In this document: positions 38,250 through 59,640 of the stretch, in pieces
Layout of the letters: each line of letters begins with the position of its first letter
Numbering within the stretch: position 1 is the stretch's first letter
NCBI GenBank assembly: GCA_045106415.1
Contig: JBGCEP010000010.1
Coordinates: 64,001 to 128,000, forward strand
Direction of reading: 5' to 3'
Origin: Oligoflexales bacterium
Lineage (GTDB): Bacteria > Bdellovibrionota_B > Oligoflexia > Oligoflexales > Bog-1112
DNA length: 64,000 bases
The notes under the pieces: model-generated
Database searches by the model: none
What the model saw: the letters and a program-made list of their open reading frames with translations, nothing else
What the model was told of the DNA's origin: nothing
Program-made: the position numbers and the translations under genes

Positions 38250-38268
38250 GATTCAAGAGGAGAGACCT

Positions 38269-38970
38269 ATGAAGCGTTTATGTTCGATATGTGCTAGAGG
38301 GGGGTCACAAGGAGTTCAAGGTAAAAATCTCAGGCCTTTACTGGGAAAACCTTTGCTACTTCACTCTTTAGAGCAAGCTCATAAAAGTGGCCTGTTTTCT
38401 GCAATAGCTGTCAGTAGTGATGATGAAGGTATTTTGGAAGAAGCCCGTAAGTTTGGTGTTGATGTTATTGTGTCCCGCCCTGAGAGTATGGCTACTTCTA
38501 CGGCAGCGAAAGTTCCTGCCATTCAACATTGCGCAAAAACATCTGAACTGATTCTAGGTGTAGAGTTTGATACTTTTGTGGATCTGGATGCGACCTCGCC
38601 CTTGAGGCAAGTTGAAGATATTCAAGGTGCTGTACATTTATTAGAAGAACAAGGAGCTGATAACGTTTTAACTGGCAGTCCTGCGAGACGTTCTCCTTAT
38701 TTTAATCTTGTCGAACGGCAAAAAAATGGCTTAACACAACTGGTAAAGCCTGGGCATCAAGTGGTGCGGAGGCAAGATGCACCGGATTGCTTTGATTTAA
38801 ATGCATCGATTTACGTGTGGAAAAGATCGGCTTTGCTTTCGTCTGATATCTCAATTTTTCACGATAAGACGCTGCTATATGAAATGCCAGAAGAAAGGTC
38901 GTGGGACATTGATTCTGAGTTTGATTGGCGTATCGTATCGATGCTGGCTGCAGAAAGAGGGAGGCTTTGA
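38269..38970 (+). CDS. Acylneuraminate cytidylyltransferase (LegF/PtmB-like)
   Basis: ICARGGSQGV.GKN, DLDATSPLR, RRQDAP, DIDS..D; ATG 38269 after GAGGAG. Confidence 0.9.
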   Translation: MKRLCSICARGGSQGVQGKNLRPLLGKPLLLHSLEQAHKSGLFSAIAVSSDDEGILEEARKFGVDVIVSRPESMATSTAAKVPAIQHCAKTSELILGVEFDTFVDLDATSPLRQVEDIQGAVHLLEEQGADNVLTGSPARRSPYFNLVERQKNGLTQLVKPGHQVVRRQDAPDCFDLNASIYVWKRSALLSSDISIFHDKTLLYEMPEERSWDIDSEFDWRIVSMLAAERGRL

Positions 38971-41890: not shown

Positions 41891-43399
41891 CTATTTGTCT
41901 TTATGGTCATGATTGTCATCATCTGTGTGGCCGAATATTTTTTTGAGGTTCAAATTTCGTTTGTTTTCACGCTCTTCGAGCTCCATTTCAGCTTGGCGGA
42001 GAGTGATTTCTTCTTGGCGTTTTTGTCGAGCTTCAGCTTCCCGCTTGATTTTTTCAAGCTTTGCTTTTTGTCGGTTCTTTTTATCAAAGGTGATGGCGCG
42101 TATCACTTCGTCGCGTGTAATGAAACCACGATTTCTTTTGAGAGCAGCAGTCACTATAACCGGGCTGATGCGTCTTAAATCACTTCCGGAAAGGCCGTCG
42201 CTGGCTTCTTCAAATTCTTCGTCGTGTGCTAAGCTTTGAAGAAGACCTTTCGTGATTTCTGCTTGTCTATCATCGCCCCTGATGTCTTGAGAAATATATT
42301 TATTGAGGATTTGAATACGGTTTTCAAGATTTGGAAGACCGATTTCAACCGAGTAATCAAAACGTCTATAAGCGGCTTGATCAATCGTATCAGGAAAGTT
42401 TGTTGTGACGATAAAAGAAATATTGGGTGAGCCTGATCCTGCGATAGTCAAAAACTCTCTTAAATACTCATTTCTTTGACCCATCATGTTTGACCCTCCG
42501 AATAGCGCTTCGCCTTCGTCTATGAAGATGACGTGCTTGACAGGAATCGCCTGTGGTTCTTGTTTTTTAGATTTTTCTGACTTGAACAGTCTTGAGAAGC
42601 GGTTTTTCATTTTACTAAAAGTTGAATTTGATGGTTGAGAGCGTTTGACTGCAGATTCTCCTAGGCCTTCAACGTAGTGAAGAAGGTGTGCGAACTGCTG
42701 GTGATGTTGTGACATAATCTTGCTGGCAGAGTAGACCTTAATAACATAATTACCCTCTGCAGCTATTCTTTTCGCTATTTCTGTTTTACCTGTTCCTGGA
42801 GGTCCATATAATAAGAGGGAAGGCAAAGGCTTGTTCATTTTGGCAGATCGGTTGAGGTGGCTCACAAATGTCTCGACTTGCAGTGAAGCTTCTTCGTCAA
42901 GAATAATGCCTTCAACTTTTTCAGGATATGATGTGAGAGTCATAGTCGAGTTTTCATAAAGGTCTGGTGCTAGAGCTTTTCTTTGCTTGCGAACGACTGA
43001 CGGCATGACAATACCGTGAATAAGAGTGTCGGCAAGACCGTTGCCAATTTTGTCAGCTGCTTTATTTAAGATTCTTGAAAAAATCCCTTGGCCCTCACCA
43101 AGAAAAAGTCTTGTGACCCCTAGGATGGCTGATCCCATAACGCTTGTTGCTATGCGGCCTGTTTGGTTATATGAGTTGGTCTCGTCGAGATCTTCAGGGA
43201 AGAAGTTTTGACCAAGCTTATCCCCTAGGGCTGATGATTTAAGTTGCGAATAATGCGATGCTTTTTCACAAAAACCATTGTAGTTATTGGGTTTTAAGTC
43301 CATGCGATGCTGTTTTGAAGCACTGATGGCTGAGGAAGAGGAAAGAACCGTTATAAGAAAGAGATGCGATATTTTTTTTTGCTTAAGAGAGAAGAACAT
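41891..43399 (-). CDS. Classic-clade AAA+ ATPase (ATAD3-like motifs) with signal peptide and C-terminal coiled coil
   Basis: LLYGPPGTGKT, IFIDEGEALF, TTNFPDTIDQAAYRRFD (SRH), GLSGSDL; ATG 43399 after GGAG. Confidence 0.85.
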   Translation of the reverse strand: MFFSLKQKKISHLFLITVLSSSSAISASKQHRMDLKPNNYNGFCEKASHYSQLKSSALGDKLGQNFFPEDLDETNSYNQTGRIATSVMGSAILGVTRLFLGEGQGIFSRILNKAADKIGNGLADTLIHGIVMPSVVRKQRKALAPDLYENSTMTLTSYPEKVEGIILDEEASLQVETFVSHLNRSAKMNKPLPSLLLYGPPGTGKTEIAKRIAAEGNYVIKVYSASKIMSQHHQQFAHLLHYVEGLGESAVKRSQPSNSTFSKMKNRFSRLFKSEKSKKQEPQAIPVKHVIFIDEGEALFGGSNMMGQRNEYLREFLTIAGSGSPNISFIVTTNFPDTIDQAAYRRFDYSVEIGLPNLENRIQILNKYISQDIRGDDRQAEITKGLLQSLAHDEEFEEASDGLSGSDLRRISPVIVTAALKRNRGFITRDEVIRAITFDKKNRQKAKLEKIKREAEARQKRQEEITLRQAEMELEERENKRNLNLKKIFGHTDDDNHDHKDK

Positions 43400-52678: not shown

Positions 52679-53659
52679 ATGAAAATATGTGCTTGTAGTG
52701 TATTGACGATTGTTTTGACAGGCTGTTTACCAAAAGATTCAAAAGTGACTGCGTTTGAACAGCCGGAGTCTATAAAAGGAACTTACTCTGATCATGCATG
52801 GGAGTTTTCACTTCCTGCTTTAGATGCTGATATTGGAGCTTATGAACCCAATGATAGTTTTCAAATAAGCCCTTTTGTGAGTTCTAGTCAAGACCATGTA
52901 AAAATTCAATGCCTTCTTAAATCGGAATCACAGCAAAAAAACAAATGGTTTTTTAATTTTTTTGCTTATGAAAAAGATCAGATCATTTTTTATAAAAGCT
53001 ATGCTTTACAAAATTGTCGATCTTTAAAAGTTAAACTATCTGATGATTTTTCTTTTGACCATATTGGATTTAAAGTGTCGTGGAATGAGGGTCGGCAAAA
53101 TTATGTTGTCTACCAAGGTCAATCTCATAGCCTTACTGATACTGTCTTATCACGTGTTCTTTTGGATAAAAAGATGGAGAGGCATATGTCACAAGTTATA
53201 TGCCATGATGAAGGCTTTTATTATGGGAAGCAGTGTCAGAGTCAATGGTTCTCATTAAAAGTGAGGCGGACGCAGCTGTGCTTATGGAAAAATTTGAATA
53301 AAATGAAAACATCACTTATACAAGATTCTTGTGGCGATGAGTCTGCACAATTTCAGTTGAGAAGACGGCAGCAAGAAGGGTATACGCTGCAGGAACGTTC
53401 GAGTTATCAGTGTTTAACTCGTTCTGATCAAGGCTGGGAGTTTAAGCCTTGTTATGTTTTCACAAAAGAAATCAATTCAGATCTAGCAAGAAAACAGCTC
53501 TTTTTAGTGAATGAAGTTCCAGGAAATGGGTTGCAACTGGAGCTCTTAGGAGAAAGAAAACAGTGTGTAGGATTGTCTTCTGGTGTGACAGAAAATGGAG
53601 CTGAAATACAGAAGGTCACGTGTATCAAGGACCTTGGTCAGTGGTTTGATATTTTATAG
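52679..53659 (+). CDS. Lipoprotein with C-terminal ricin-B-lectin-like domain
   Basis: Lipobox LTGC; C-terminal Cys-spaced QxF/QW repeats (SYQCL, KQCVG..NGAEIQ..C...GQWF). Confidence 0.6.
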   Translation: MKICACSVLTIVLTGCLPKDSKVTAFEQPESIKGTYSDHAWEFSLPALDADIGAYEPNDSFQISPFVSSSQDHVKIQCLLKSESQQKNKWFFNFFAYEKDQIIFYKSYALQNCRSLKVKLSDDFSFDHIGFKVSWNEGRQNYVVYQGQSHSLTDTVLSRVLLDKKMERHMSQVICHDEGFYYGKQCQSQWFSLKVRRTQLCLWKNLNKMKTSLIQDSCGDESAQFQLRRRQQEGYTLQERSSYQCLTRSDQGWEFKPCYVFTKEINSDLARKQLFLVNEVPGNGLQLELLGERKQCVGLSSGVTENGAEIQKVTCIKDLGQWFDIL

Positions 53660-53663
53660 AGAA

Positions 53664-54422
53664 TTATTCAGGTTCTTCTTTTTCTCCGAGATAAGAACTT
53701 AGTTTTGCACGAATGACTTTTGGATTTTCCCCTGCGATAATTCCTCTTGAGCCAATTTTAATCATTTCAAGCCCAGTTCTCTCCATTGTAGAGTTAAATT
53801 TGAGTTTTGAAGAAAGAGGAATGAAAATTAAGGTTGAAAAAAGTGAACCATAAAGTGTGGTTACAAGTGCTACCGCGAGTCCAGGGCCAATTTTAGAAGG
53901 GTCTGAAAGGTTAGCCATAATAACAATCAGCCCCACAACAGTACCAATCATACCAAAGGCGGGACAGGACTCACCAAGGAAGTCTAATACGTCATGAGCA
54001 TGTTTATGCCGCCTTTTTAAATTAAGCATTTCTGTACTTAAAATTCCTTCAATAGTATCAGCATCGTATCCGTCAACCATGCTTCGAACGGCTTTATTCA
54101 GATAAGGATGATTGACGGTGTGTTTTTCAAGGCTAAGAATGGAACCTTTTCTAGCAACTGTAGCGCACTCAATGATTTCGTCGACCATTTCAGCATATGA
54201 TGCAACGCTGGACTTAAAACAGATAGGGATTGCTTTGAGACCTGCCATAAAACAAGGGATATTCAAACGCATCATGGTTGCAAAAAGACTTCCTCCCATT
54301 ACAATGACAAGACTGAGAAGATCCCAATACATTCCAAGGCCTAACTCAGCAGAAGAAACAACCATACATCCGACAACAACAGCACTCCCACAAATTAATC
54401 CCAGAATTGTTGCTAAATCCAT
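53664..54422 (-). CDS. motA: Flagellar stator subunit MotA/PomA
   Basis: MDLATILG, IVMGGS, GILSLE-like, PAFGMIGTVVGLI, AVALVTTLYG, GENP; ATG overlaps the upstream TAA. Confidence 0.93.
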   Translation of the reverse strand: MDLATILGLICGSAVVVGCMVVSSAELGLGMYWDLLSLVIVMGGSLFATMMRLNIPCFMAGLKAIPICFKSSVASYAEMVDEIIECATVARKGSILSLEKHTVNHPYLNKAVRSMVDGYDADTIEGILSTEMLNLKRRHKHAHDVLDFLGESCPAFGMIGTVVGLIVIMANLSDPSKIGPGLAVALVTTLYGSLFSTLIFIPLSSKLKFNSTMERTGLEMIKIGSRGIIAGENPKVIRAKLSSYLGEKEEPE

Positions 54423-54733
54423 TAGGTTTCTCCTTCGCATATTTTATAACTGAGAACTTTTCGTGGAAACACCGAATGATCAATTTCAAGTGTGGAATAT
54501 CGGATTTTTTTCTGGAAAACATCGACTGATTTTTGGTATTCCATTTCTAGGTAACATTTTTGTTTGCCGATTTTATAATTACGGACACAAAGACTGACAA
54601 ACCCTTCATGAGCGATCTCGACATGATTGACATCAGGTTCTAAATACCATTCGCACTCTTTGAGACGTTGAGGGTCACACCCTAAAGTGAACAGTGTAAA
54701 GCAAAAGGTAATGATGTTACGGTTTGTAATCAA
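54422..54733 (-). CDS. Cys-rich lipoprotein embedded in the stator operon
   Basis: Lipobox TLGC; four more Cys; overlaps both neighbours. Confidence 0.7.
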   Translation of the reverse strand: MITNRNIITFCFTLFTLGCDPQRLKECEWYLEPDVNHVEIAHEGFVSLCVRNYKIGKQKCYLEMEYQKSVDVFQKKIRYSTLEIDHSVFPRKVLSYKICEGET

Positions 54734-55490
54734 TTTTGATATCCACTCGGCGATTTTTTTTGCGCCCTTCTATTGTCTCATTAGAGAACGCTGGATCTGA
54801 AGCGCCAAATCCGGCAATTTTGACCTTATCTGGTGCAAAGTTCTGATAATCTAAGAAATATCGAGCGATATAGCTTGCTCTCAAGGAAGAAAGTTCTAGA
54901 TTTGAAAATCCGCTTCTAGGAATAATATGATCTGTATGACCTGTGATGATGATGTGCCGATTGAGTGATGATAAGACTTCAATAAGAGGTTTTAATTTTT
55001 TATATGAACTTAATGTTAAACGATATTTTCCCGGCTTATAAAAACCTGAAGATGTCAGTCGAACTGTGATGCTGGTCTTGTTTTTTAATAATGAAATAGA
55101 TTTTCCAATGTTTTTTTGATGCTGATCAATTTTCCCGCTTTCAAGAGTTGCAATTGATTGTTTTATCAAATCAAAGTCTCGATTTAATATATTGATGTTA
55201 AAAATATTTTTATTACTTGTTTCGATTTTCTTTTTTGGAATTTTTTTACCTTTCCAAAACTTGAAAACAGCTTTTCCATTAGGTAAAGGGCCCTTTTGAG
55301 GCTCATTGATAGAGTCTGGTACTTCCATAAAAGCTTCGCGTATTGAAGAGGCAACTCCTAACATAGTAAGAGTTTCTCCTTCGGGTTTGATACCGTAAAG
55401 AACCACAAATGTCGCAAAAAGAAGAGTCATTAAGTCAGCATAACTCACCAGCCAACCAGCTCCTCCACCGCCTTCATCATCGTCTTCGAT
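54717..55490 (-). CDS. motB: Flagellar stator subunit MotB paralogue 2 (proposed ATC start at 55490)
   Basis: WLVSYADLMTLLFATFVVLY TM; GHTD, NLELSSLRA, NRRVDI OmpA-like domain; GAGGT RBS 5 nt before ATC; in-frame stop just upstream. Confidence 0.88.
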   Translation of the reverse strand: MEDDDEGGGGAGWLVSYADLMTLLFATFVVLYGIKPEGETLTMLGVASSIREAFMEVPDSINEPQKGPLPNGKAVFKFWKGKKIPKKKIETSNKNIFNINILNRDFDLIKQSIATLESGKIDQHQKNIGKSISLLKNKTSITVRLTSSGFYKPGKYRLTLSSYKKLKPLIEVLSSLNRHIIITGHTDHIIPRSGFSNLELSSLRASYIARYFLDYQNFAPDKVKIAGFGASDPAFSNETIEGRKKNRRVDIKIDYKP

Positions 55491-55501
55491 AGTAAACCTC
55501 G

Positions 55502-56287
55502 TTAGTTATCCGCGTAGTTGATAAATATTTCAACTCTACGATTGAGTTGACGACCGTATGGTTGATCTTGTCGTGCAATGGGTTTTCTGTCTGCGTAGCC
55601 AGAGATGCTAAGAAGCTTAGCGTCTGCTTGTAGGTTTTTTATAAGATATGCTGAAACAGAGTTTGCACGTTGTGTTGAAACAACCCATTTTGAAATACCT
55701 TTCTTTTCTGGAACGTCATCAGTATGCCCTTCAATATGAAGAGGCTGTTGAAGATCGACAAGGTTTTGTAACAAAGGTTTTAATGACTTTAGATCTGATT
55801 GATTGGCTTTGGATTGCCCTTTTTGGAAGTATAAAGAAGAAAGAAAATTGAGCCGGATTGATGATTCATTTTTTTCAATCGCAACGACATCATGGTTTTT
55901 AACATTTCCTTTTCTAGGCTTTTTGACACTGAGCATTTCTACAAGGTTCCTTAAGTGTGCATAATCTTTTTCTATTTTGCTTTTTGAGAAATGAGTTTCC
56001 AGTGCTTGTCTTTTACTGACAGGCTCATGAGCAATGTTGCCTTTCCAAAACCTAAAAATATCAATTCCTTTTGTGAGTTCGCCTTTTTTTTCAACCAAAG
56101 GAATATCTTCAGGAACTTCAACAAAACTTTCTTGAATTCTAGATTTGACTCCTTGGAAAGCTGATGTTTTCCCTTCAGGTTTTAAGCCATAGAGGACTAC
56201 AAATGTTGCAAACAAAAGGGTCATTAAGTCAGCGTAACTTACGAGCCAACCACCACCTTCGCCGCCTTCATCATCATCATCTTCGAT
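55502..56287 (-). CDS. motB: Flagellar stator subunit MotB paralogue 1 (proposed ATC start at 56287)
   Basis: WLVSYADLMTLLFATFVVLY TM lies partly upstream of the ATG at 56224; GHTDD, STQRA, NRRVEI; AAGGAG RBS 8 nt before ATC. Confidence 0.88.
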   Translation of the reverse strand: MEDDDDEGGEGGGWLVSYADLMTLLFATFVVLYGLKPEGKTSAFQGVKSRIQESFVEVPEDIPLVEKKGELTKGIDIFRFWKGNIAHEPVSKRQALETHFSKSKIEKDYAHLRNLVEMLSVKKPRKGNVKNHDVVAIEKNESSIRLNFLSSLYFQKGQSKANQSDLKSLKPLLQNLVDLQQPLHIEGHTDDVPEKKGISKWVVSTQRANSVSAYLIKNLQADAKLLSISGYADRKPIARQDQPYGRQLNRRVEIFINYADN

Positions 56288-56457
56288 AAGGGTCTCTCCT
56301 TTTTTGGATATGCGAGATCATATTATCACGCACATTTTAAAAAAAAGTCTGGTGAAGCAGGCTGTTTTTTTCCTCTCTCACCTTATTCAGAATTTTTGAT
56401 GAGATTCGACGATGTTATAGAATTTTTGTACCATAGGGAGGACTGTAGGAGGTGATC

Positions 56458-57702
56458 ATGACAGATGAAGCAATGAAAAAATTAACAGGGCATATTTTAC
56501 TTGCACTTTTGTTAGGTGTTGGGTGTGGGGGCCTGCTTCAACTGCTTCCTCAAGGCTTTGTTGGTCTGGCATTTATCGAAGCCTGTCTTATTATTGTTGC
56601 GAATTCTTTTATTTCAGCTTTAAAAATGATTGTTGTTCCTATGGTCTTTTTTTCTATTGTTTCAGGGGTTGCAAGTTTAGAGGGGACACAAACTTTAGGG
56701 CGTATGGGATGGAAAACTTTTATTTTATATACTCTTACAACTGTGATTGCGATCAGTATGGCTTTAGGCATAGCAAAAGTTAGTGGGATTGGAATCGGTC
56801 TCAAGATGGTTCATCTTGCTGAGCCATCTTTGGCAACTCCTCCAGGGGTTGTGGAAGTTTTAAGTCAGATGATTCCATCGAATCCTATTCAAGCGGCTGC
56901 AAATGGAAGGATGCTCCAGCTCATTGTGTTTTCTCTTTTTCTTGGGACAGCGATTTCAGCGTCAGGGGCTCCAGGACGAAGAATTGCAAAAAATATGGAT
57001 GATTTTTTATCCGTGATGATGAAGTTGATTAATTTAATTTTTTATTTTGCACCTTACGGTGTTTTTGCTTTAGTTACACGGGCATTTTATCAAGTTGGTT
57101 TCGGTGTTTTGAGCTCGCTTATGAGTTATTGTCTTGTTGTTTTTGTTGTTCTAGTGTTGCAAGCTCTTTTCACATATACGTCTTTATTATGGTGTGTCGG
57201 ATTAAATCCTTTGCTATTTTTTAAAAAGATGAAGCCTGTTGGGCTTTTTGCTATGAGCACAGCAAGCTCAAACGCCACACTCCCTATGACTATGGAGGCA
57301 GTGACTCATGACCTAGGAGTGGAACCCTCTGTTGCTTCTTTTACGTTGCCTTTGGGTGCAACGATGAATATGGATGGTACAGCAATTATGCAAGGTGTGG
57401 CCACGGTGTTTCTCGCACATGCCTACGGCATTGATTTAAGTTTGATGGATTATGTCAATGTGATTATGATGGCGACACTGGCTTCTATCGGAACAGCAGC
57501 TGTGCCAGGGGTTGGTCTCGTGACGCTGGCTATGGTTTTAAAACAAGTTGGTATCCCAGCAGAGGGGATTGGGATGATCTTAGGGGTTGATCGCCTTTTA
57601 GATATGTTGCGGACAGCTCTCAATGTCTGTGGTGACGCTGTTGTAAGCTGTGTGATTGCAAAAAGTGAATTCAAAATGAACACAGATTGCTATCACTCAT
57701 AA
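56458..57702 (+). CDS. Dicarboxylate/amino acid:cation symporter (DAACS, GltP/DctA family)
   Basis: LKMIVVP.VF.S, IPSNP, STASSNATLP, PLGATMNMDG, VDR.LDM.RT..NV.GD. Confidence 0.95.
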   Translation: MTDEAMKKLTGHILLALLLGVGCGGLLQLLPQGFVGLAFIEACLIIVANSFISALKMIVVPMVFFSIVSGVASLEGTQTLGRMGWKTFILYTLTTVIAISMALGIAKVSGIGIGLKMVHLAEPSLATPPGVVEVLSQMIPSNPIQAAANGRMLQLIVFSLFLGTAISASGAPGRRIAKNMDDFLSVMMKLINLIFYFAPYGVFALVTRAFYQVGFGVLSSLMSYCLVVFVVLVLQALFTYTSLLWCVGLNPLLFFKKMKPVGLFAMSTASSNATLPMTMEAVTHDLGVEPSVASFTLPLGATMNMDGTAIMQGVATVFLAHAYGIDLSLMDYVNVIMMATLASIGTAAVPGVGLVTLAMVLKQVGIPAEGIGMILGVDRLLDMLRTALNVCGDAVVSCVIAKSEFKMNTDCYHS

Positions 57703-58547: not shown

Positions 58548-58719
58548 AATTTGCATTTGATTTCTTTTTTGAAAAAAACATAAAAAATCAACAAAAAAAT
58601 CATGGAACATAGATGTTATCTTTTTTTAAGATGAGCCTCTGTTTCGTTTTTCTATGAAATCAGGTGATAATATCATGTGTGTCAATCATCTATGGCCTTA
58701 ATGGCAGGAGGAGTTGTCC

Positions 58720-59640
58720 GTGGGCTTAAGGATAAAAACCAATATTGCTTCTTTGAATGCTCGTCGTAATTTGAATTCATCTACGAATACTCAAAGACGT
58801 GCGATGGAAAAACTATCTTCAGGTCAGCGTATTAATCGCGCAGCTGATGATGCAGCAGGACTTGCTGTCTCTGAAAATATGCGTGCAGATATTCGCTCTC
58901 TTGAGATGGCTCGCAGAAATACATCAGACGGTGTTTCTCTTGTTCAAACAGCAGAAGGAAGCTTGGTTGAAACGACCAATATTCTTGTGCGTTTGAGAGA
59001 ACTGGCTGTTCAATCAGCGTCCGATACAATTGGTGATAAAGAAAGAGAATTTCTTGATAAAGAATTTCTACAGCTCAAAGACGAAGTTGACCGAATTGCA
59101 CGTTCGACGGATTTTAATGGAACGCGGCTTCTTCTCGGGGGTTCAGATCGTCCTGATGATTATGGTTCAGGTGGGAATAGCAATCCATTAGAAATACAAG
59201 TGAGTAAAGATTTTTATGAAGATTCAGATGCTATTGATGTTCGCAACCCAGTCAATATCATTAAGGTTTCCTTTGCGAACTTAAATAGTACAACAACAGG
59301 TGAAGGTTCTTTAGATATCGGCGAGCATGAAGATGGGGCTCGTGTTCATAGAAAAGAAGATGCACAACACAGTATTATGAAGCTTGATAAAGCACTTTAT
59401 AAAGTAAATGACTACCGATCTTATTTAGGATCTGTTCAAAACCGCCTGACATCCACGATTAGAAATTTAGGTGTCCAGGTGGAAAATCTTGAGGAATCGA
59501 GGAGCCGTATTCGCGATGCAGATTTTGCAGCTATTACGGCTGAGATGACGCAAGCAAATATTCTTCAACAAGCAGGTGTTTCTGTTCTATCGAATGCAAA
59601 TAACCAACCACAAATCGCACTTTCATTATTAGGTGGTTAA
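58720..59640 (+). CDS. fliC: Flagellin
   Basis: (M)GLRIKTN, KLSSG.RINRAADDAAGLA, QTAEG.L.E, QNRL, SRIRDADFA, QAG.SVL..AN..PQ.ALSLLG; GTG 58720. Confidence 0.97.
   Translation: MGLRIKTNIASLNARRNLNSSTNTQRRAMEKLSSGQRINRAADDAAGLAVSENMRADIRSLEMARRNTSDGVSLVQTAEGSLVETTNILVRLRELAVQSASDTIGDKEREFLDKEFLQLKDEVDRIARSTDFNGTRLLLGGSDRPDDYGSGGNSNPLEIQVSKDFYEDSDAIDVRNPVNIIKVSFANLNSTTTGEGSLDIGEHEDGARVHRKEDAQHSIMKLDKALYKVNDYRSYLGSVQNRLTSTIRNLGVQVENLEESRSRIRDADFAAITAEMTQANILQQAGVSVLSNANNQPQIALSLLGG

Follow-up and report, generated by a model that had tools for sequence, protein, structure and literature searches.

At which codon does translation begin when the conserved coding sequence of a gene extends upstream of every canonical start codon? 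This question is raised by two tandem motB paralogues, motB1 and motB2, encoded on the minus strand of a 64,000-nucleotide (nt) stretch of DNA, hereafter the window, from an Oligoflexales bacterium (assembly GCA_045106415.1, contig JBGCEP010000010.1, positions 64,001 to 128,000). The contig (C10) is one of 89 in a 2.95-Mb draft metagenome-assembled genome (MAG) that is 93.8% complete (genome G000, genus g1). An earlier sequence-only reading of the window had proposed that both genes begin at a non-canonical ATC. In both, ATC stands at the position where related genes carry canonical start codons. The likely explanation is Shine-Dalgarno (SD)-led initiation at near-cognate AUC with low MotB output, in which motB2 is possibly coupled to the termination of motB1.

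ATC codons at the aligned start position

The motB1 frame is closed upstream by a TGA, after which the leader reads TCT CGC ATA TCC AAA AAA GGA GAG ACC CTT and then ATC (coordinates in Table 1). From the ATC the gene continues with GAA GAT GAT GAT GAT GAA, a Gly-rich run, and TGG CTC GTA AGT TAC GCT GAC, which encodes the conserved WLVSYAD segment with the channel Asp. No ATG, GTG or TTG occurs from the TGA to the Trp codon, and the earliest canonical start of motB1, ATG 56224, lies downstream of the Asp codon (56230-56228). In motB2, CTA ACG AGG TTT ACT follows the upstream in-frame TAA and leads into ATC GAA GAC GAT GAT GAA ... TGG CTG GTG, with no ATG, GTG or TTG from the stop to the conserved WLVSYAD; the earliest canonical start is GTG 55448, the Val of this segment. 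The sequence-only reading had described just this arrangement for both genes, with an upstream stop, an SD motif, a shared ATC-GAA-GAY and no canonical start ahead of the conserved segment, and every element matches the sequence. It had also likened the AAGGAG-ATC of motB1 to another start context. The corresponding GGAGAGACCT-ATG is present at 38259-38271, before an open reading frame (ORF) starting MKRLCSICARGG, a putative cytidylyltransferase by the label given in that reading and by its motif.

The SD motif of motB1 is rare in this genome. AAGGAG is found in 0.28% of random 15-nt genome windows (163/59,008) and before 63 of 1,623 first canonical starts of long ORFs (3.9%). No 16S rRNA, and hence no anti-SD sequence, was found in the assembly. 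The coding potential of the stretch from the upstream stop to the first canonical start, scored as codon log-odds, places motB1 at rank 1 and motB2 at rank 6 among 408 ORFs. Initiation at the ATC codons would give the predicted N-termini (M)EDDDDEGGEGGGW and (M)EDDDEGGGGAGW.

The position of the start was located by comparison with relatives, for which 41 (relatives), 16 (family), 95 (order) and 131 (class) genomes were searched. A motB subtype with an acidic N-terminus adjoins orfX and motA in several genera, and 20 such cassette-type motB genes were read at the DNA level, 18 of them from related genomes. Homologous proteins carry the names of Oligoflexales or Bdellovibrionota MAGs in their sources. 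At the codon aligned with the ATC, 13 of the 20 genes have a canonical ATG, GTG or TTG. This is ATG in seven (the G002 downstream copy, G022, G032 and four first copies of genus g9), GTG in five (G004, G017, G056, G074 and G057) and TTG in one (G059), the GTG and TTG starts being the nearest canonical codon as assigned by reading. ATC is found in two, the motB1 and motB2 of the window, and ATA in four, the second copies of genus g9. The canonical starts of relatives at the aligned codon identify the ATC as the start position. First-copy orthologues reading ATG GAA GAT GAT differ from the ATC GAA GAT GAT of motB1 by one base, and G032 has a similar SD context (AAGGAG-cgaccctctc-ATG).

The remaining gene, the upstream copy of G002:C21 (L043), is ambiguous and has no start at the aligned codon. 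It could start at a TTG lying further up, or at a CTG 6 nt downstream of GGAGGG, and its database call (P0007, 300 aa) runs from an ATG far upstream; the copy may represent a further near-cognate start of the subfamily. The best MotB1 orthologue is in G004 (43% identity). The nearest MotB1 relative among database proteins, P0017 (42% identity), shares a contig with the nearest MotB2 relative. It carries Ile at the aligned residue, but nine codons further upstream there is also an ATG. A metagenome scan for closer relatives returned one locus at 23% identity.

The leader of motB1 contains a short hairpin followed by a U8 run. When 56380-56255 is folded, the U8 run pairs with the A-rich SD region, with a minimum free energy of -28.9 kcal/mol (z -2.09); 5 of 200 shuffles fold as well, and the fold depends on the position of the transcription start. 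The leader also holds a 14-codon out-of-frame upstream ORF (uORF), with its ATG within TGATAATATG and its TGA over motB1 codons 3-4. A promoter scan of the minus strand at 56300-56450 found no sigma-70-like site. An Rfam search of 53500-56600 (E up to 1) gave no known RNA element, with two chance snoRNA-like matches inside motB2.

Conserved ATA codons in a sister genus

Genus g9 (G008 and G012) carries the same motB1-motB2-orfX-motA order, with a second tandem pair in each genome. All four second copies (Table 1) read ATA GAA/GAT ACT CC(N) AAR, with no canonical start from the upstream stop to the ATA. The ATA is invariant while later codons vary synonymously (CCA/CCC/CCT, AAA/AAG, GAA/GAG, GGC/GGT). 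The codon before Trp is TTA, ATG, TTG or TTA, and two of the four genes lack any canonical start ahead of Trp. In a tree the four form a 100/100 clade with substantial internal divergence. The retention of ATA through considerable divergence argues against near-cognate starts as mere damage, and suggests that such a start can persist in a conserved gene of the cassette. Public gene calls of the g9 second copies are shortened accordingly, for example P0052 and P0043.

The sequence-only reading had held that ordinary starts in orthologues, with no conservation of ATC, would count against it. For motB1 this is literally what the other genera show, with ATG or GTG at the aligned codon. These canonical starts, however, are what locates the motB1 start, and the second motB of genus g9 keeps ATA in 4/4 copies.

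MotB1 and MotB2 share 36% identity overall, with a near-identical transmembrane region. Counted over 30 codons beginning with Trp, the two proteins share 26 residues, while 14 codons differ synonymously and four non-synonymously, and third positions agree in 14/30. So many shared residues with so few shared third positions indicate strong purifying selection and no recent gene conversion. By this low third-position identity next to the start, gene conversion copying ATC from one paralogue to the other was ruled out, and the two ATC codons do not stem from a single recent change.

Candidate non-canonical starts elsewhere in the genome

The genome was surveyed for other non-canonical starts with a required extension of at least 10-12 codons, a threshold that misses shorter cases. 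A further ATC candidate is a gene on C42 (minus strand, 27850; L056/L058) that we take to be ppk1, encoding polyphosphate kinase, from its motifs NRELSWL...FFMVRVAG. Here TAA GGA CTT CTC ATC GAA AAG ... precedes NRELSWL. The ATC is the only near-cognate codon, and lies 6 nt behind AAGGA and three codons after the TAA; no canonical start lies upstream of the conserved N-terminus. A canonical start precedes NRELSWL in 7/7 relatives' loci that matched the search pattern; the other 7 of the 14 loci gave no pattern match. In an amidohydrolase-like gene on C26 (minus strand, 100160; L057), labelled by a reading of its motifs, a TAA is followed one codon later by a CTG, 6 nt downstream of AAGGAG. This CTG is the only plausible start for a 39-codon N-terminal extension that looks conserved. 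The infC gene of this genome most likely starts at TTG behind GAGGG.

The survey also met a release-factor-2-like ORF on C30 (minus strand, near 42971; ...LQDITDTMNADPDLWND...) whose frame stays open beyond the first canonical start on the upstream side, presumably as expected from the usual prfB +1 frameshift site. The draft yielded 34 tRNAs, with tRNA-Ile missing.

Proposed mechanism of initiation

In the mechanism favoured here, the SD motif of each gene (AAGGAG for motB1, GAGGT for motB2) would place the 30S subunit, and the ordinary initiator tRNA with its CAU anticodon would pair with AUC through a third-base mismatch. The proteins would then begin fMet-Glu-Asp-Asp..., like their orthologues. 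Because AUC is near-cognate, initiation would be weak and the output of both MotB1 and MotB2 low; the strong SD may make up for part of this. In E. coli reporters, AUA, AUC, AUU and CUG reach ~1-2% of AUG, and an AUC construct gave N-terminal Met by mass spectrometry, according to the accessible text of 10.1101/063800. Initiation factor 3 (IF3) is described in the available part of PMC10158994 as disfavouring weak third-base pairs. By analogy with E. coli, AUC initiation in the motB genes is probably sensitive to IF3.

For motB2, some or most initiation might come from ribosomes that have just finished motB1, which is plausible given that the motB2 AUC lies 11 nt after the motB1 stop. In the four g9 loci, 15, 15, 4 and 4 nt separate the ATA from the first-copy stop. 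Coupling of motB1 and motB2 by termination and re-initiation is therefore plausible from distance. It is uncertain whether 11-15 nt counts as close enough, as the coupling literature speaks of overlaps or very short distances in the available text of PMC10666635. Readthrough to a MotB1-MotB2 fusion was ruled out in the window, where a spacer of 11 nt places motB2 in another frame than motB1; in g9, first and second copies are in frame in two of the four pairs and out of frame in the other two. A terminator-like stem-loop of seven pairs with a weak T-run lies at 55530-55550 (minus strand) inside the 3' end of motB1. It is ~40 nt before the motB2 ATC and could affect coupling or the level of the downstream transcript.

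Why such starts would be kept allows several readings. The sequence-only reading had linked weak AUC initiation to the MotA5:MotB2 stoichiometry of the stator. A 50- to 100-fold fall against a 2.5-fold adjustment leaves this link without quantitative support, and stoichiometry is doubtful as the reason for AUC. Low output as a selected trait may instead reflect a scarce accessory stator, or a level set by IF3 or by coupling, and these readings are equally open. A bolder proposal, put forward only tentatively and with low confidence, is that AUH starts are a maintained design of the cassette, in which the second motB has had ATA or ATC near the first stop since before the two genera split and MotB2 is made mainly by re-initiation after MotB1 at a fixed low ratio. 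If so, de novo initiation of motB2 would be nearly off and MotB2 would come mainly from ribosomes finishing MotB1. The fixed low ratio of paralogues would allow, for example, a mixed MotB1/MotB2 dimer in one MotA5 ring, and the pair would represent natural re-initiation at a non-canonical codon for subunit dosing.

Weighing the evidence

AUC initiation in both genes, as first proposed from the sequence, is supported by the aligned ATG or GTG of orthologues, the SD spacing, the N-terminal coding signature and agreeing contigs from public runs. Several points weigh against it. Across the genome, SD-preceded ATC is found in leaders at 11/244 (4.5%) vs 419/12,752 (3.3%) for all codons; this is no enrichment and speaks against a general AUC habit. 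The initiator tRNA is standard; its two identical copies show the usual acceptor end (CGCGGGG), an anticodon stem with three G-C pairs, and CAU as anticodon. An organism-wide AUC habit was ruled out on these grounds. The motB1 orthologues, compared across other genera, use ATG or GTG. The window's motB2 groups with the g9 second copies at weak support (86/58). GGAGGAG lies 11 nt upstream of GTG 55448, and a start there would keep the Asp. A drop to ~1-2% of AUG goes far beyond what the MotA5:MotB2 ratio would need, and no RNA run is listed as containing the motB stretch.

That the two ATC codons are sequencing or assembly errors is barely credible, although the genome is a metagenome-assembled draft in 89 contigs. 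Independently assembled Logan contigs of two public runs, X1 and X2, were compared with the window; run X5 contributed none. A 7,279-nt contig of X1, possibly the source sample of the genome, spans 54600-56500 with two differences only (55583 and 55856), neither at an ATC. A 151-nt contig of X2, a different sample from the same study, covers 55444-55594 with zero differences and confirms the ATC at 55490. X2 leaves 56200-56327 uncovered, and the motB1 ATC is confirmed by X1 only. The same letters in contigs of public runs speak against assembly error, which would also have had to strike two start codons alike. If the letters are genuine, the downstream canonical starts could still be the real ones, giving MSYADLMT... 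from the motB2 GTG and MTLLFATF... from the motB1 ATG, with the upstream similarity a relic. Gene callers chose these starts, the window's motB2 stands in the database as a 243-aa protein (P0001), and the GGAGGAG noted above precedes its GTG. This explanation is nevertheless quite improbable. The motB1 product would have neither the Trp nor the channel Asp, and ATG 56224 has no SD-like motif before it. The acidic tail and the Trp codon are moreover conserved as protein with synonymous divergence, and the upstream stretches are among the top-ranked in the genome for coding potential. A minor shorter form of MotB2 from GTG 55448 may exist.

Recoding would reconcile an ordinary AUG with the conserved N-terminus through an out-of-frame start and a later shift into the motB frame. 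The candidates are the ATG run inside GAT GAT GAT and the leader uORF (ATG ATC TCG ... TGA), which overlaps the motB1 start; both motB genes have out-of-frame ATGs, and ppk1 too has an overlapping out-of-frame ATG uORF. ATGs in GAT GAT runs are, however, automatic and are also present where an orthologue starts at a normal ATG. Neither a slippery site nor a conserved shift signal was seen in the genes, and the ATC stands exactly where orthologues start. The uORF ATG may itself fall in a -10 element (TGATAATAT) and so may not be transcribed, and recoding is considered very improbable. The last alternative is early decay of an accessory cassette that is being lost, the two ATG-to-ATC changes being start knock-outs in frames otherwise undamaged so far. 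A further motB of the genome (C30:44127) is canonical and starts at a normal ATG, which could make the cassette dispensable. Its distribution is patchy, with a match that reaches the acidic N-terminus in only 5/16 family genomes (G000, G002, G004, G008 and G012), and the canonical starts of motB1 orthologues in other genera would fit a loss. Against this, both motB frames, orfX and motA are intact, the strong SDs are kept, and both population differences in motB1, those found in the X1 contig, are synonymous third-position changes (AAA to AAG, ATC to ATT). Two independent knock-outs that each produced ATC, besides the further ATC of ppk1, would be an odd coincidence, and in the g9 second copies an ATH start has gone together with long-term conservation. 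Decay is therefore judged unlikely, and SD-led AUC initiation is the preferred reading of both genes.

Comparison with known systems

Natural ATC starts are already established, and the motB pair likely joins the natural AUH start class. The pcnB gene of E. coli starts at AUU, and NCBI table 11 includes ATC as a start. In Deinococcus, dnaA was found to start at ATC by N-terminal proteomics, and the ATT start of E. coli infC is mentioned in the same source (PMC2830850, accessible text). The motB genes resemble dnaA, infC and pcnB in being conserved, intact genes with an SD-led AUH where relatives have ATG or GTG. Gene callers shorten the product of such starts, and low or regulated output is presumed. 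The motB case differs in that two adjacent paralogues of one structural protein carry ATC, and that it is known from sequence alone. Unlike infC, no autoregulatory logic is apparent in the pair.

A parallel in function may be ebpA of Enterococcus faecalis, whose ATT start attenuates pilus expression as given in the available part of PMC4447247. Both are rare start codons on a structural gene of a surface organelle whose level would be kept low. The organelle and the codon differ, however, and the effect in ebpA was shown by mutation. In gene content the locus recalls the motA/motB1/motB2 operon of Aquifex aeolicus, for which the accessible text of PMC4525482 gives 97% identity between the N-terminal and transmembrane parts and 23% between the periplasmic parts. 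Both systems combine one motA with two tandem motB paralogues that are near-identical in the N-terminal and transmembrane region and diverged in the periplasmic part. The order motB1-motB2-orfX-motA and the extra orfX set the present locus apart, and no unusual start codons are reported in that text for Aquifex.

Translational coupling by termination and re-initiation is treated in PMC6728339 and PMC10666635 and reviewed in PMC12548453, each available in part. The close spacing of the motB2 AUC and of the g9 ATA to the preceding stop resembles such coupled pairs, as does the overlap of orfX and motA (TAATG), while the accessible text of the review makes no mention of near-cognate codons as sites of re-initiation. 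Should coupling be true, the pair would be of use as a natural case in which re-initiation at a weak codon sets the dose of two subunits. Among the papers listed in a literature search, none dealt by title or abstract with a non-canonical start codon of motB. The pair would add a structural motor protein, as two paralogues, to the short list of natural AUC and AUA starts. Added interest lies in ATC occurring in two paralogues of one motor protein together with a conserved ATA in a sister genus. The case also suggests that the level of an accessory stator is set at translation initiation.

Consequences for annotation

Automatic callers shorten both motB products. A motB1 call from ATG 56224 would lack the channel Asp, and motB2 is recorded at 243 aa, as given above. 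Of 55 MotB2 homologues (E up to 1e-30), eight are called as starting at or after the Trp motif: P0001 from the window, P0021, P0027, P0044, P0043, P0047, P0052 and P0054, four of them of the type seen as second copies in g9. The case of P0044 is weak, because P0176 (263 aa), a member of its 90% cluster, has a normal N-terminus. The canonical paralogue on C30, which starts at ATG, served as a rough control, with none below 259 aa among the best 120 of 711 homologues. Such shortened calls leave apparently 'dead' MotB proteins in stator inventories, and these entries are probably annotation artefacts.

The stator cassette and its products

The four genes form an operon-like row on the minus strand, read in the window as motB1 -> motB2 -> orfX -> motA (Table 1), with a divergent transporter gene on the opposite strand upstream of motB1.

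Table 1. Coordinates of the motB cassette, its start regions and the corresponding g9 loci
Feature	Position	Strand	Remarks
In-frame TGA	56320-56318	-	Upstream limit of the motB1 frame, 10 codons before ATC
SD AAGGAG	56301-56296	-	8 nt before motB1 ATC
ATC, proposed motB1 start	56287-56285	-	Aligns with canonical starts of orthologues
motB1	56287-55502	-	261 codons plus stop TAA 55504-55502; ATC as first codon
In-frame TAA	55508-55506	-	Upstream limit of the motB2 frame, 5 codons before ATC
SD GAGGT	55500-55496	-	5 nt before motB2 ATC
ATC, proposed motB2 start	55490-55488	-	11 nt after motB1 stop TAA 55504-55502
motB2	55490-54717	-	257 codons plus stop; ATC as first codon
orfX	54733-54422	-	103 codons; TTG start; between motB2 and motA
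motA	54422-53664	-	252 codons from ATG 54422; SD AAGGAG 7 nt upstream
g9 second-copy loci	L009 (G012:C178), L010 (G008:C51), L036 (G008:C425), L037 (G012:C311)		

MotB1 matches the Pfam families MotB_plug (E 3.2e-11) and OmpA (E 8.1e-13), as does MotB2 (E 7e-11 and 2.2e-18, respectively), and YAD is present in both. MotA matches MotA_ExbB (E 2.8e-24). By this domain architecture and the MotA partner, both genes are motB, and a role in flagellar drive is predicted. Synteny with the motA partner is kept across related loci, and alignments of motA orthologues begin at residue 1 of the ATG 54422 form. A flagellin-like ORF, so labelled from a reading of its sequence, lies nearby at 58714-59640.

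The small orfX matched no Pfam family, and its Atlas matches score <=0.82 and serve as leads only. Its stop overlaps the motA ATG by one base, and its N-terminus (...FTLGC) resembles a signal peptide or lipobox. By tblastn, 10 genomes hold 12 distinct related loci in which orfX adjoins motB and motA. It is conserved between or beside these genes across several families, as in L006, L007/L043, L008, L016, L048, L049 and L052-L055, and is a candidate stator accessory protein.

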